Part shown: positions 6,372 to 12,184 of the stretch, piece after piece
How the letters are laid out: every line of letters begins with the position of its first letter
How positions within the stretch are numbered: position 1 is the first letter of the stretch
IMG/VR virus record: IMGVR_UViG_3300012352_000117
Location: 8,620 to 72,619 of that record
Source of the DNA: a virus
Reading direction: 5' to 3' (one strand)
Length of the DNA: 64,000 bases
The notes under the pieces: generated by a model
Databases searched by the model: none
Seen by the model: the letters and a program-made list of their open reading frames with translations, nothing else
Told to the model about the DNA's origin: nothing
Program-made: the position numbers and the translations under genes

Positions 6372-7141
6372 AAGTACATATTGGACCTTACAAGAACTGG
6401 GTAGGCCCTTACCAGATTGCAGACACTATCTTCTTCTGGTGCGAGAAGTACCCAGAAAAAGATATCGAAAATCGCTGGGATTATAAGACCAAAGATTGGC
6501 TTGGCGAGTTTCTAGCTCATGGCTTTCATAAGAAGATTGAAAGTGCAGATGGCAGCTGGCGTATGAAACGCGATCGACCAGAGACTTGGTTCTACAAACT
6601 TCTTCTATGGATTGACTCTAAGAAGAAGCGCACAATGAAGATCCACATTGACAAGTGGGATTCATGGAATCTTGACAGTACTTTGAGTCCCATCATTCTT
6701 CCTCTGCTAAAGCAGTTGCGAGAAACCAAACACGGTTCCGGTTATATCGACATGGAAGATGTGCCAGAATACATGCGCACTACTTCTTTCGAAGAGTATG
6801 ATTCTCAAAAATGCTTTGAGTTCTATCATGCTGAAGAAGTAACAGGTGGATATGACATTCATCGTCGCTATGAATGGGTACTTGATGAAATGATCTGGGC
6901 TTTCGAACAACTGCAGCCAGACTGCGATTGGGAAGAACAATACCGTTCTGGTGAGCACGACATCGTCTGGGTACCAGATACTACTAAGCTTGATGAGAAC
7001 GGCAAGCCTAAGTTTCACACTATGACTCATGGTCCAAACGATACTTACAAGTGTGACTATGAAGCTATGCAAAAACACCAAGATCGCATCAATAACGGTC
7101 TACGTCTATTTGGTAAGTATTTCCAGACTTTGTGGGATTAA
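6368..7141 (+). CDS. conserved T4-like phage hypothetical protein
   Basis: 257 aa; WD.WNLD.TL..IILP.LKQL and W..VLDEMIWAFEQ motifs. Confidence 0.7.
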   Translation: MKVHIGPYKNWVGPYQIADTIFFWCEKYPEKDIENRWDYKTKDWLGEFLAHGFHKKIESADGSWRMKRDRPETWFYKLLLWIDSKKKRTMKIHIDKWDSWNLDSTLSPIILPLLKQLRETKHGSGYIDMEDVPEYMRTTSFEEYDSQKCFEFYHAEEVTGGYDIHRRYEWVLDEMIWAFEQLQPDCDWEEQYRSGEHDIVWVPDTTKLDENGKPKFHTMTHGPNDTYKCDYEAMQKHQDRINNGLRLFGKYFQTLWD

Positions 7142-7143
7142 AC

Positions 7144-7404
7144 ATGGATCTATCTAAACGACTTTCGGAGCTTGAAGCTGAGATGTTAGAGCTTCAAGCT
7201 AGAGTTTCTCGACTTGAAGCTCTGATCAAACCACTACAACCTAACCCAGTTGTATTCCCTCAGACACCAGATTGGCTGAGCCCTAGTATCCAACCACTTC
7301 CAGCTTCTAAGTGCTCTAAGTGTGGTCTAGAGTTCTCTGGACCTATGGGATATTGTTGCCCACGAACAGATTGTCCTACAGGCCTTGGTCCAATCATGTG
7401 TTGA
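7144..7404 (+). CDS. coiled-coil plus Cys-cluster hypothetical protein
   Basis: Heptad-like N-terminus; CSKC...CCPRTDC at the C-terminus. Confidence 0.55.
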   Translation: MDLSKRLSELEAEMLELQARVSRLEALIKPLQPNPVVFPQTPDWLSPSIQPLPASKCSKCGLEFSGPMGYCCPRTDCPTGLGPIMC

Positions 7405-7428
7405 TACTAAAGTATTACACTTTTTCTG

Positions 7429-7457
7429 TGTACAAATAATCCTGAATGTGGTATAAT
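7429..7457 (+). promoter_or_regulatory. sigma70-type early promoter
   Basis: TGTACA-N17-TATAAT with extended -10 TG. Confidence 0.8.
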
Positions 7458-7478
7458 AAACTATAGAAAGGAAAAGGT

Positions 7479-7937
7479 ATGATGAGAAAAGGTGAAATGC
7501 TAGACAAAGCTCTACTGATCGCAACTAATGCGCATCATGGTCAGTTTGACAAAGGCGGCAACCCGTACATTCTGCATCCTTTGAAAGTTATGCACTATCT
7601 GAAGTCTAACGACGAAGAACTTCAGTGTATGGCTCTTCTTCACGACGTCGTCGAAGACACTAACACAACTTATGTTGATCTTCGCGAAGCAGGAATCTCT
7701 GAAAGAGTTATCAATGCTTTGAGATGTCTAACTAAGCAACGTGGTCAGACTCTTGGCGAATACAAAGACGCAGTGTTCTCTAATCGAGATGCAATGTTTG
7801 TCAAAATGGCAGATTTGCGACACAACAGCGACATTCGTCGACTCAAAGGAGTCACAGACAAAGACCTTGAACGCATGGCAAAGTACCAGCGATTCTATCT
7901 TGAAATTCGGGCGAAACTAAATGAAAATCTATCTTGA
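7479..7937 (+). CDS. HD-domain hydrolase, RelA/SpoT ((p)ppGpp hydrolase)-like
   Basis: AH.GQ.DKGG.PYILHP, ALLHDVVED and VKMADLRHN motifs. Confidence 0.8.
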   Translation: MMRKGEMLDKALLIATNAHHGQFDKGGNPYILHPLKVMHYLKSNDEELQCMALLHDVVEDTNTTYVDLREAGISERVINALRCLTKQRGQTLGEYKDAVFSNRDAMFVKMADLRHNSDIRRLKGVTDKDLERMAKYQRFYLEIRAKLNENLS

Positions 7938-8427
7938 CATGGACGGTGTTCTCACCGATCTTGAACATCGTTATGCTGAAAAGTTTGGTCAGTTTCCAAC
8001 TGATAAAGATCTAAAGCGAAAGCATTTCTGGAATAACTGGAAAAAGTTTGTCGACGACAATGAGTTTGAAACTCTTCCAAAGCATCCTGGCGCTGAGAAG
8101 TTGCTGAGTGTTGTTGAAATGTTTAGAGGTACAGGAATTCCAGTTGAAATCCTGTCTTCTTCTGGAGGTGGATATTCGCACGATCTAGTTGTCGAGCAAA
8201 AGAAAAAGTGGCTTGCTGCTAATAGTATCTCATACACTGCTAACATTGTTCCTGGTGGTGCTCGTAAAGCTGAATATGCTAAACCTTGGCACATTCTGAT
8301 TGACGACACTGAGCACGTCGTAGAAAATTATCGTGCTCATGGTGGCACTGCTATTCTTCACAAAGATGTTGATGCTACTATTCGTATGCTGCATCTGCTC
8401 CACTTAGAGTGGATGGGCGCTCAGTAA
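7921..8427 (+). CDS. HAD-family 5'(3')-deoxyribonucleotidase-like protein
   Basis: [10 protein letters not shown] motif I; ILSS motif II; KA.YA...ILIDD motifs III/IV. Confidence 0.8.
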
Positions 8428-8807
8428 TGGCGTACTACAACAGTCATCCATATCGTTGTCCAAAATGCGGGCATGAAGAGCTTGCAGGCGGCAGCGATAT
8501 GGATTATTGGACTAAGTCTCCAATCACAGACGAGAACAATCCGATCTGTCCTAAGTGTTGGAATAACTTTCTAGATTCTCTTGGTGCTGAGATGCGATGC
8601 ACAGTCGCTTGGACTAAAGAAGGAAGCGACTATGATAAGCACTATGGAAAAAGACAAACTGTCACTGCAGACACAGTAATGCGCCTTAGAGATGCAACTG
8701 ATGCTCCAATGATGGAATGCAAGAAAGCTTTGGTAGCAACCAATGGTGATTTTGATAAAGCTAAAGAATGGATACGCGTAGGCTATCGATTCAGAACCTA
8801 CATTTAA
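8427..8807 (+). CDS. zinc-ribbon protein with C-terminal EF-Ts N-terminal (UBA-like) domain
   Basis: CPKC...CPKC, then [40 protein letters not shown], which matches the EF-Ts N-terminus. Confidence 0.65.
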
Positions 8808-8810
8808 CAT

Positions 8811-9101
8811 ATGAATGATATACTACTAAACACTTTTTCTTGGATCAAAGATGACTACCGTTCTCATCCTTTTCGTTTTATCGTTGAGCTTCTTGCTTGG
8901 GGCATTTCAATTGGGTGTTCGATCACAATGGCTCTCACAGTCCCGAATCCGCCCTTACTTTCTCTGTATCCTGTTTGGATCCTCGGCTGTAGCCTCTATG
9001 CTTGGGCTGCTTATACTCGGAAATCTTTTGGGATGTTGGCTAACTACATCTTGCTGACAACGATCGACACAATTGGTTTAGTTAGGATGCTTGTAGCATG
9101 A
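8811..9101 (+). CDS. small multi-pass membrane protein
   Basis: Three hydrophobic segments. Confidence 0.6.
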   Translation: MNDILLNTFSWIKDDYRSHPFRFIVELLAWGISIGCSITMALTVPNPPLLSLYPVWILGCSLYAWAAYTRKSFGMLANYILLTTIDTIGLVRMLVA

Positions 9102-9361
9102 TACAGCTTAACACTCAGCAAGTTTATATTCCCCAGCAACCTCCTCCAGTTGCCCCTCCAATTCAATCGTTTACGTTTGTAAAACCCGTGTCTTATGAAT
9201 TTAGAGTAGCTGAGCACCTTGATCAAACTGACAAGGTTATTAAAGTTGCACTCCAAGTCCAAGTGTGGGAGCATAACGATCACGGCACTGGAAACGTGAT
9301 ACAAGCTTGGCACGACGTTCCAAGAGTTAAAATGAAAGATGGAGTTATTCAGTATGACTAA
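9098..9361 (+). CDS. hypothetical protein
   Basis: 87 aa, overlapping start/stop. Confidence 0.55.
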   Translation: MIQLNTQQVYIPQQPPPVAPPIQSFTFVKPVSYEFRVAEHLDQTDKVIKVALQVQVWEHNDHGTGNVIQAWHDVPRVKMKDGVIQYD

Positions 9362-9947
9362 ATGTGTGATTTACGACTTTGAAACTTTAAGTCAAGACCA
9401 GCGCCAAGGTGTTGTTACATCTTTCGCTATGTTGTCGTTTGATGACAAGAGATACATTGAAGATCCTTATACGTTCGAAGAACTTGTTGGAATGTGCAAG
9501 TACATTAAGTTTGATGTTGAAGAGCAAGTAGCAGTGTATCATCGTAAGATGAGCAAAGAAACTATTGAATGGTGGGACAAACAAGGCGAACAGGCTAAAA
9601 AGCAGATTCGCCCAAGTAAAGACGATGTCTCAATCGATCAGCTCTATGCTTTCATTGTGAATAACTGCGACGCTGCAAATATCAAGCGATCATTTACCCG
9701 TGGTAATACCTTTGATCCAATGTTCTTGGATTACTTGATGAAAGACACTGGAAAGCTTCCTCCATTCCATTGGCGAACTGTTCGTGATACTCGATCAATG
9801 ATTGAAGGTATGTCATTTGGTATGGATTTAGACAATGGTTTCATGCCAGGAGATCTTGCTTCAAAGTTTATTAAGCACGACCCATGTCACGACATTGCTA
9901 TGGACGTGATGCGTATGCAACTATTAGCACAAGCGATTCTCTCATGA
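9354..9947 (+). CDS. dexA: DexA-like DEDD 3'-5' exonuclease
   Basis: IYDFETL, KFD.EEQ...TIEWW.KQ, RG.TFD...L and H...HD.AMD motifs match T4 DexA as recalled. Confidence 0.8.
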   Translation: MTKCVIYDFETLSQDQRQGVVTSFAMLSFDDKRYIEDPYTFEELVGMCKYIKFDVEEQVAVYHRKMSKETIEWWDKQGEQAKKQIRPSKDDVSIDQLYAFIVNNCDAANIKRSFTRGNTFDPMFLDYLMKDTGKLPPFHWRTVRDTRSMIEGMSFGMDLDNGFMPGDLASKFIKHDPCHDIAMDVMRMQLLAQAILS

Positions 9948-10120
9948 AACTGTTTACAACAATTCTTCTTTGTGGTATAATACTATCAGGATGCACTACT
10001 TACAACATCAACACAACTACTATAACTTCTCCTGACGTCGTAGTAGAACGTATCGTTGTACCAGTGCCACTTATTGAACGACCTGTTCGAAATCCGAACA
10101 ATCCATATTATACAAAATGA
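9944..10120 (+). CDS. small lipoprotein
   Basis: MKLFTTILLCGIILSG-C lipobox. Confidence 0.55.
   Translation: MKLFTTILLCGIILSGCTTYNINTTTITSPDVVVERIVVPVPLIERPVRNPNNPYYTK
9953..9981 (+). promoter_or_regulatory. sigma70-type early promoter (inside lipoprotein signal-peptide codons)
   Basis: TTTACA-N17-TATAAT with TGTGG extended -10. Confidence 0.65.
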
Positions 10121-10671
10121 ACATTTTCTATCTACATGCAGATCCAAAGACATGCGCTCAACAACACGTTGATAAGCATGTAGTTAAGATGATCCTTGAA
10201 TACGCTCAACTTCTTTCTACTGCTCATCGAGTTATCGACGGCGTTGAAAGTGTAGCACTGTCTAAATCTGGTCGAAAGCAAAAAGTGTGGGCTCTTGACG
10301 ACGAGCGTGAAGCTAACATCTATAAAGCTTCACACATCAACCATCCTTCAGCTAAGTGGGCTCGGCACTGCTACTCTAATTATCAATTTCTTTTCGAGCT
10401 TTGGACTCACTTGCTAGATGAATACACTTACCGCTATGGTAAACATCATTCGTCTGGTCGGTTGCTTGGCTACTTAGCTCGTCCTCCGATGAAGATCTCT
10501 ACTGTACATAAGTTCTCAGCGCCTTGGCGTGCTATGCCAGATGACTACAAAGTTCCTCGTGAAGTTGAAGAATACACTGTGAAATCTTATCGCGCGTACT
10601 ATAACGGTTCTAAGTCTCATATGTTTAAGTGGAAGAACCGAGAAGTTCCTGATTGGGTTGAGGTAAAGTAA
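10117..10671 (+). CDS. pyrimidine-dimer DNA glycosylase family protein (DenV-related)
   Basis: MNIFYL...CAQ.H.DKHVVKMILEYAQLLSTAH; HINHP...W; YRAYY..K. Confidence 0.75.
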   Translation: MNIFYLHADPKTCAQQHVDKHVVKMILEYAQLLSTAHRVIDGVESVALSKSGRKQKVWALDDEREANIYKASHINHPSAKWARHCYSNYQFLFELWTHLLDEYTYRYGKHHSSGRLLGYLARPPMKISTVHKFSAPWRAMPDDYKVPREVEEYTVKSYRAYYNGSKSHMFKWKNREVPDWVEVK

Positions 10672-11051
10672 TGGGATTGCAATGGAGAAAGCGCACCAAG
10701 GACGCAAAGTCTTGGTGGAATTTCTCATCTTCTAAAAGAGGCCTTGGTGCCTCTTTTTCGTTTAAGATGGGAGACATCACTGCTAACTTTGGTACTGGAG
10801 GAAGACGAAGAATCACGATGAAACTTGGAAATGGTTTTCGTTATGTTAAGACTGCGACTATCAAACCAAAACCTAAAGCAATCACTTCATCAAAACCAAT
10901 TGTGTCTACTAACGAACTTATTGACTCATTAGAAACGCTAAACAGAAAATTAGAGCCTCTAGACATGGATAAGTGGACTGGAAAACAGCAGTTAGTTTTT
11001 GTGCTTATAGTTTTTATTGTGTGTCTAGTCGTGCAATTGTCGATGAGATAA
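10671..11051 (+). CDS. DUF4236-like protein with C-terminal TM helix
   Basis: MGL.WRKR...N.S.SKRG.G.S...G...G.RYVKT; hydrophobic C-terminus. Confidence 0.5.
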   Translation: MGLQWRKRTKDAKSWWNFSSSKRGLGASFSFKMGDITANFGTGGRRRITMKLGNGFRYVKTATIKPKPKAITSSKPIVSTNELIDSLETLNRKLEPLDMDKWTGKQQLVFVLIVFIVCLVVQLSMR

Positions 11052-12122: not shown

Positions 12123-12184
12123 TTCACCTTTCAGCTAGATAGATCAATTTGATATAAATATGTCTATCTAACTTGAAAGGTGAA
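12123..12184 (+). promoter_or_regulatory. RBS-sequestering hairpin with T4 late promoter TATAAATA (12153-12160) in its loop
   Basis: TTCACCTTTCA (12123-33) pairs with TGAAAGGTGAA (12174-84); TAGATAGA (12136-43) pairs with TCTATCTA (12163-70). Confidence 0.8.

Follow-up and report, generated by a model that had tools for sequence, protein, structure and literature searches.

The DNA analysed here (the window) is a stretch of 64,000 nucleotides, positions 8,620 to 72,619 of the IMG/VR viral contig IMGVR_UViG_3300012352_000117, a record of 76.9 kb that is rated about 48% complete. The stretch is present in aquatic and freshwater metagenome runs. The gene of interest lies within a block of genes on one strand, in the order RelA/SpoT-type HD hydrolase, NT5C-like nucleotidase, gene for the 126-residue protein P0001, and small hydrophobic protein. 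The features discussed below are as follows.

7429–7457, plus strand: sigma-70-like promoter candidate (TGTACA-17-TATAAT with TG; score 10/12), in the gap before the HD gene
7479–7937, plus strand: small HD hydrolase, RelA/SpoT (p)ppGpp-hydrolase-like, 152 aa (Pfam HD_4, 27.3 bits)
7921–8427, plus strand: NT5C-like 5'(3')-deoxyribonucleotidase (PF06941, E 6.7e-5; phrog_2643, E 1.7e-31)
8427–8807, plus strand, stop included: gene for the two-domain protein P0001 (open frame of 126 codons plus stop)
8427–8654, plus strand: four-Cys zinc ribbon, residues 1–76 (C11, C14, C41 and C44, plus an invariant C58)
8658–8780, plus strand: EF-Ts N-terminal (TS-N, UBA-like) three-helix domain, residues 78–118 (from sequence, model and conservation)
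8688–8690, 8709–8714 and 8721–8723, plus strand: Arg88, Met95-Met96 and Lys99, predicted EF-Tu-contact residues
8781–8804, plus strand: basic-aromatic C-terminal tail of VGYRFRTYI type, residues 119–126 (from alignment A3 and column counts)
8811–9101, plus strand: 96-aa hydrophobic protein, probably a membrane protein, directly downstream of the P0001 gene

The P0001 gene runs from an ATG at 8427, which overlaps the stop codon of the upstream gene (TAATG), to a stop codon at 8805–8807. We assigned the start to this ATG rather than to the upstream GTG at 8409 because every homologue begins at the same ATG. Three full-length homologues from other metagenomes (P0002–P0004) are 62–82% identical to P0001 and have the same neighbours.

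The product of the HD gene matches TIGR00691 (spoT_relA; E 1.6e-16) over profile positions 1–101 only, which is the hydrolase part, and also matches phrog_990 (E 4e-60). It looks like a small alarmone hydrolase, encoded two genes before an EF-Ts-like module, and the block as a whole is in keeping with translation and stringent control as its subject, although this is only suggestive. The promoter candidate at 7429–7457 could serve the block from 7479 to 9947 as its early promoter; it stays only a candidate because promoter-like sites in this region are no more frequent than expected by chance. No T4-type late box (TATAAATA) was found between 4.5 and 12.1 kb of the window, the first one lying at 12153. 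The block looks early, and its genes would be expressed early in infection. The 96-aa hydrophobic protein matched no Pfam or PHROG family; its gene is syntenic in one related locus (L009) and absent from another (L005). A separate 90-aa open reading frame at 7132–7404 on the plus strand, also absent from L005 and also without a Pfam or PHROG match, encodes a protein with a coiled-coil-like stretch in its N-terminal part and many Cys residues at its C-terminus (CSKCG...CCPRTDC).

Contigs assembled from RNA libraries in three studies match positions 8700–8937 with 0–1 differences. We take them as a weak hint of transcription and no more, because RNA libraries can contain DNA. Some of these contigs extend from the 3' end of the module into the gene at 8811–9101. 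RNA-library contigs that overlap 8696–8732 alone are bacterial tsf genes, not phage. That short segment (33–37 nt) has at least 90% DNA identity to many abundant contigs from freshwater DNA and RNA runs; the flanks of these contigs read as genuine bacterial EF-Ts (AMVAELRAKT ... TEAEGDMDKA). The match may be a clue to the donor or host lineage, which would be betaproteobacteria-like, or may merely reflect a very conserved peptide.

The earlier note on this sequence described two CPKC motifs followed by an EF-Ts-like stretch, and this layout is borne out: the motifs supply C11/C14 and C41/C44, and residues 78–117 (nucleotides 8658–8777) align with EF-Ts. The N-terminal ribbon belongs to a family without a name, whose members occur only on metagenomic phage-like contigs (alignments A2 and A4). 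Seven clusters of stand-alone ribbons (P0005–P0011; 75–77 aa) end exactly where the module begins in P0001, and in the one stand-alone-ribbon locus that we inspected (L002) the following gene encodes no module. Pfam searches with the ribbon returned generic ribbons only, below cut-off. An Atlas look-up with residues 1–76 yielded nothing beyond viral clusters without names and models called "small CPxCG zinc finger", the latter under their trust levels. The full-length AlphaFold model, built from a 13-row alignment, has a mean pLDDT of 56 and is too poor to describe the ribbon or contacts between the domains.

As a small phage four-Cys ribbon, this domain resembles the Lar restriction-alleviation zinc ribbon (PF14354). 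However, none of 12 family members matched PF14354 at E ≤0.01, and we do not class the P0001 ribbon as Lar. The remaining signals are a match to phrog_6422 (E 1.3e-3) and an hhalign probability of 57%, over 20 columns, against the Lar-like ribbon of an independent metagenomic protein, P0074. That protein (115 aa; PF14354, 27.5 bits) joins its Lar-like ribbon to a TS-N module, as P0001 does with its own ribbon.

Residues 78–118 are a clear homologue of the N-terminal domain of EF-Ts, with a resemblance far beyond chance. The earlier note had proposed this homology and an HMM search as its check, and the search supports it. NCBIfam TIGR00116 (tsf) matched residues 78–117 at profile positions 3–42 of 293 (E 2.1e-12, 46.8 bits), well ahead of the Pfam models EF-Ts_N (PF25025; E 2.7e-5, 24.5 bits, gathering threshold 33.2) and UBA/TS-N (PF00627; E 1e-3, 19.3 bits, gathering threshold 22.4). 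It should be noted that PF25025 was built on the mitochondrial domain, whereas TIGR00116 models bacterial tsf. The TIGR00116 score is far under the curated cut-off of 104 bits for equivalogs because only the head of EF-Ts is present. In a phmmer search of the PDB, the best matches were EF-Ts of Mycobacterium tuberculosis (7VMX chain A; E 9e-7) and of E. coli (1efu; E 2e-4), both ungapped; HMMER aligned residues 80–118 with residues 5–43 of the former and residues 79–117 with residues 3–41 of the latter (1efu_B). Over about 40 residues, the module is 60–76% identical to real EF-Ts encoded in bacterial rpsB-tsf loci. The nearest real EF-Ts proteins found share the octapeptide TDAPMMEC with the module and come mostly from Burkholderiales, a taxonomy that serves only as a lead because the search was seeded with that motif.

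Structural comparison gave the same assignment. An AlphaFold model of residues 72–126, made from a 37-row alignment that included real EF-Ts rows, has a pLDDT of 81 and predicts helices at 81–91, 95–104 and 109–124. EF-Ts N-domains take all of the first 14 places among its PDB matches (rmsd 0.4–1.0 Å over about 40 residues, 49–55% identity), and the modelled three-helix fold is that of the E. coli EF-Ts N-domain (residues 1–54; 1EFU chain B). The shortness of the domain keeps the Foldseek E-values weak (2e-2). Generic UBA domains rank under the EF-Ts N-domains. A generic ubiquitin-binding UBA was considered for this segment and rejected: EF-Ts models or structures outranked UBA in every search, and the loop reads DAPMM, as in EF-Ts, not MGF or MGY. 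The earlier note had allowed that the segment might score better as a generic UBA or L7/L12-like domain with an unconserved contact face. We found EF-Ts domains at the top of every comparison, and the C-terminal domain of bL12 (L7/L12) matched in neither sequence nor fold.

The rest of EF-Ts is missing from P0001. In EF-Ts this domain is N-terminal and is followed by the core, the dimerisation module and the C-terminal module, whereas in P0001 it is the C-terminus of another protein, none of those parts follow it, and the protein ends 9 residues after the domain. Where real EF-Ts has a linker into the core (K-G/L-x-A-A-x-K), the module has its basic-aromatic tail. The absence of the core, which the earlier note had also pointed out, extends to the whole 76.9-kb record: a search for the EF_TS core (PF00889) found no match there, while the same search matched 10 of 14 control genomes. 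Likewise, subdomain N with its TDFV motif (Asp80, Phe81) is absent from both the protein and the record. The gene also sits in a different setting from real tsf, in a phage accessory-gene block after the HD and NT5C genes and not behind rpsB; the real tsf loci L015 and L016 have the arrangement rpsB-tsf. P0001 cannot be a nucleotide-exchange factor.

Phage proteins that are fragments of EF-Ts without its full function, and that have been suggested to act on EF-Tu, are known from Caulobacter phage Colossus (gp247; PMC3556154) and Lactococcus Ceduovirus (gp21; PMC7150918). For both, a role as a translation booster has been proposed, in which a miniature EF-Ts speeds GDP/GTP exchange on EF-Tu. 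By their descriptions, however, gp247 keeps subdomain N with Phe81 and gp21 resembles the C-terminal dimerisation part, so that both retain parts of EF-Ts other than the N-domain, and neither is described as a shuffled module. As subdomain N with TDFV is the element that opens the nucleotide site, and is lacking here, we regard a booster role for P0001 as highly improbable.

To see which positions of the domain have been kept, we counted residues in 26 core-less modules on unrelated carriers and in 128 EF-Ts-type N-domains. Position 88 is Arg in 25/26 modules and in 128/128 EF-Ts domains. Position 95 is Met in 21/26 modules (Leu in 4/26) and in 125/128 EF-Ts domains, and position 96 is Met in 25/26 and 127/128, respectively. 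Position 99 is Lys in 25/26 modules, with Arg in the other one, and Lys in 125/128 EF-Ts domains, with Arg in three. By contrast, position 104 is Glu in 116/128 EF-Ts domains but in only 2/26 modules, where Ala is found in 15/26, and position 115 is Trp in 16/26 modules compared to 25/128 EF-Ts domains. Position 105 is Cys or Thr in the phage modules, a derived feature relative to EF-Ts, and a basic-aromatic tail of the type R-x-F/Y-R-T-Y/W-I/L closes about half of the modules, again on unrelated carriers. Taken together, these counts indicate that the EF-Tu-facing residues were held while other positions moved.

The conserved positions correspond to known contacts. R13 and K24 of M. tuberculosis EF-Ts are N-domain contacts with EF-Tu (PMC9529903) and align with Arg88 and Lys99, while M19 and M20 of E. 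coli EF-Ts align with Met95 and Met96; in E. coli numbering, the full set R12, M19, M20 and K23 corresponds to Arg88, Met95, Met96 and Lys99. The claim that P0001 retains the Arg, Met-Met and Lys can thus be extended to its relatives, in which each residue is kept in at least 21 of the 26 homologous modules and three of the four in 25. The position of EF-Ts Glu28 is 104 here, and the Glu is lost in P0001. That this Glu went while the EF-Tu face was kept is consistent with the lifting of a constraint that acts only on whole EF-Ts. Six other residues of E. coli EF-Ts that are vital for interaction with EF-Tu (K51, G54, D80, F81, I125 and G126; PMC9529903) all lie outside the copied part. The Arg, Met-Met and Lys are conserved throughout real EF-Ts as well, so that a need for a stable fold, or a capture not long ago, could account for part of their retention in place of a kept interface.

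The derived features of the phage set (loss of Glu104, Cys or Thr at 105, Trp115 and the conserved Arg/aromatic tail) could instead mean that the TS-N fold was kept as an adaptor for a partner other than EF-Tu, such as a phage early protein, another translational GTPase or RNA, with specificity supplied by the tail and the altered surface of helices 2 and 3. Three-helix domains of the UBA type are versatile in what they bind, and the lower structural matches do include generic UBA domains. However, of all surface positions in the phage set, those that face EF-Tu in EF-Ts are conserved best, and an identity of 50–76% to real EF-Ts would be unusually high after a change of partner. We therefore think that such repurposing is unlikely, both as regards the partner and as regards the source of specificity.

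The module is not confined to P0001. A search of 1.8 billion representative proteins with a module profile gave 11,365 matches, mostly real EF-Ts. Among the best 150 of these 11,365 matches are about 20 proteins that lack the EF-Ts core and carry the module at the C-terminus of unrelated sequences. In all, about 25 other metagenomic proteins bear the module on unrelated partners, and the contexts that we inspected look like phage accessory-gene blocks. All of the core-less carriers are metagenomic sequences without names. Loci L005 and L006 lack the ribbon; in their protein P0012 an NT5C-like nucleotidase, the upstream neighbour of P0001, bears the module at its C-terminus, and this module groups with that of the window with support of 95/95. 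P0013 has the module behind a further, different N-terminal part, P0095 carries it on a relative of the window's ribbon, and twelve more proteins (P0038, P0040, P0044, P0051, P0052, P0061, P0065, P0075, P0092, P0125, P0133 and P0164) carry it on uncharacterised domains. Tandem TS-N-like modules with no EF-Ts core are found in P0072 (130 aa; two copies) and in P0036 (386 aa, on a 19-kb contig; three copies). The metagenomic protein P0037 (124 aa) also has tandem modules of this kind and no core. IMG/VR itself contains a 142-aa module protein and, in a 343-kb phage, a stand-alone module protein of 70 aa. These sequence comparisons show ribbon and module to be two separable units, and the module to have been shuffled.

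In a tree of the modules and EF-Ts N-domains, the EF-Ts rows group together (87/92), and P0074, which keeps Glu104, is the only module that falls inside their group. This suggests that most modules derive from one capture and that P0074 may represent a second, independent one; a single origin of the phage modules is neither favoured nor rejected (p-AU 0.50) by this tree of only 51 columns, too few for a count of the captures.

The module is also under selection. Between P0001 and P0002, dN over the module is 0.07 and dS is 1.6; in other pairs, synonymous sites are saturated and dN is 0.2–0.5. The gene is under strong purifying selection. This bears on the idea that the module is an inert remnant, either a scrap of host tsf that is read through or an artefact of gene calling, an idea to which the identity of at least 90% between 8696–8732 and bacterial tsf contigs from the same sample types lends some substance. 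A remnant would not be expected to show such selection with saturated synonymous sites, to occur in frame on many carriers with a common new tail, or to persist where the zinc ribbon has been lost, and we find this explanation barely credible.

We propose that P0001 is an early accessory protein that joins the four-Cys ribbon (residues 1–76) to a C-terminal EF-Tu docking module (residues 78–126), the latter consisting of a TS-N domain captured from bacterial tsf and a phage-specific basic-aromatic tail. Helix D of EF-Tu (residues 144–156) binds the EF-Ts N-domain as well as the C-terminal domain of L7/L12 (PMC5770553, PMC5574714). The module retains the face by which EF-Ts grips helix D in the G domain of EF-Tu. 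Having no core (TDFV, Asp80/Phe81) to expel GDP, it would bind EF-Tu without recycling it; with the core absent, a TS-N module that does bind would act as a tether or a plug. It would tie the cargo that it carries, in P0001 the zinc ribbon, to EF-Tu, an abundant protein of the host. While bound, it would occupy helix D and exclude EF-Ts and bL12 from that EF-Tu molecule, whether as a side effect or as a second purpose, so that the molecule would be held out of the cycle of exchange and ribosome delivery, or would be shielded. The bL12 C-terminal domain is likewise small and helical and contacts helix D, and one would expect it to face competition from a free TS-N domain (PMC5770553).

We favour a docking-tag role because the module is nearly always the last domain of its varied carriers. 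We give an even chance to the reading in which P0001 carries a non-catalytic EF-Tu docking module that tethers cargo and occupies helix D. A prediction of the complex between the module (alignment A1) and E. coli EF-Tu as a stand-in for that of the host, run without controls, gave scores of 0.26 and 0.27, where the mark is 0.32, and speaks neither for nor against binding. On its own, a TS-N domain covers no more than a portion of the interface that EF-Ts has with EF-Tu, so that its affinity alone may be low. The proposal in the earlier note of a phage EF-Tu-binding module is partly supported: the identity of the domain, the lack of a core and the kept contact face bear it out, and binding itself, like any part in blocking defences such as Lit-type proteases, is conjectural.

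A broader form of the docking reading is that phages use the module, tail included, as a portable EF-Tu tag at the C-terminus of diverse early proteins, among them zinc ribbons, a nucleotidase and uncharacterised domains, and at times produce it by itself or in tandem. It would bring phage effectors to helix D of the host's EF-Tu, and so either divert a portion of the EF-Tu pool from EF-Ts and bL12 or shield EF-Tu from immune systems that cleave or recruit it. EF-Tu is a hub of phage-host conflict: it is cut by Lit and by type IV Thoeris, Avs7 builds it into a sensor complex, the T4 capsid protein binds it, and Qbeta replicase takes up both EF-Tu and EF-Ts (PMC13581612). We put this broader form forward as possible but doubtful, with Lit, type IV Thoeris and Avs7 as the systems from which EF-Tu might be shielded.

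The setting of one sister module also agrees with a link to translation. On a 27-kb JGI contig (L011, 5841–8426), the gene for P0065 (141 aa) overlaps the end of a gene for a T4-type RNA ligase 1 (Rnl1), which itself follows a gene for PNKP; these two genes are the tRNA-repair pair. A gene of the Gad2 family (PF26128) lies 4 kb upstream on the same contig.

The proximity of a module to tRNA-repair genes would suit a different function, in which the module is a decoy that soaks up a host factor recognising EF-Ts, for example a defence system or a tRNase toxin that needs EF-Ts. Several CDI tRNase toxins do require both EF-Tu and EF-Ts (PMC9086364). However, EF-Ts works via EF-Tu in the published cases, no specific binder of the EF-Ts N-domain is known, and a decoy leaves the fusion to varied cargo unexplained. 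We consider a decoy quite improbable and retain docking on EF-Tu as the preferred reading.

If docking on EF-Tu is correct, a selected EF-Tu-binding domain that phages transfer from gene to gene would give DNA phages a new means of reaching the elongation machinery. In its broader form, the reading would define a new class of host-takeover or counter-defence module directed at the most abundant translation factor. The domain would also provide a functional handle on small proteins that are otherwise blank, and would be a minimal ligand, supplied by nature, for the helix D site that EF-Ts and the ribosomal stalk have in common.

The TS-N domain itself is textbook knowledge. That DNA phages employ it alone or fused to other sequences is undescribed in the literature that we searched, which contained no paper on a TS-N-only phage protein. 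P0001 is a new carrier of the module, and the evidence that the domain has been shuffled is clear. The statement in the earlier note that no DNA-phage protein of this architecture had been described stands for that literature and for 50,697 deposited phage records; as regards the module itself it needs amending, since the module recurs on many metagenomic carriers. Megablast of window positions 7000–11000 against deposited phages gave no match. A tblastn search of the 50,697 records with the protein matched 7 of them: three unannotated records that we inspected encode full-length bacterial EF-Ts and three more are annotated as tsf, so that the six assessed records, in which the gene looks like host DNA, show no instance of this protein at that sensitivity. 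The three inspected records, labelled "UNVERIFIED" (OQ572403.1, 17826–20942; OR846595.1, 64078–67194; MT838987.1, 1–2586), contain full-length tsf with open frames of 300–310 aa, which suggests that these phage assemblies include host DNA.
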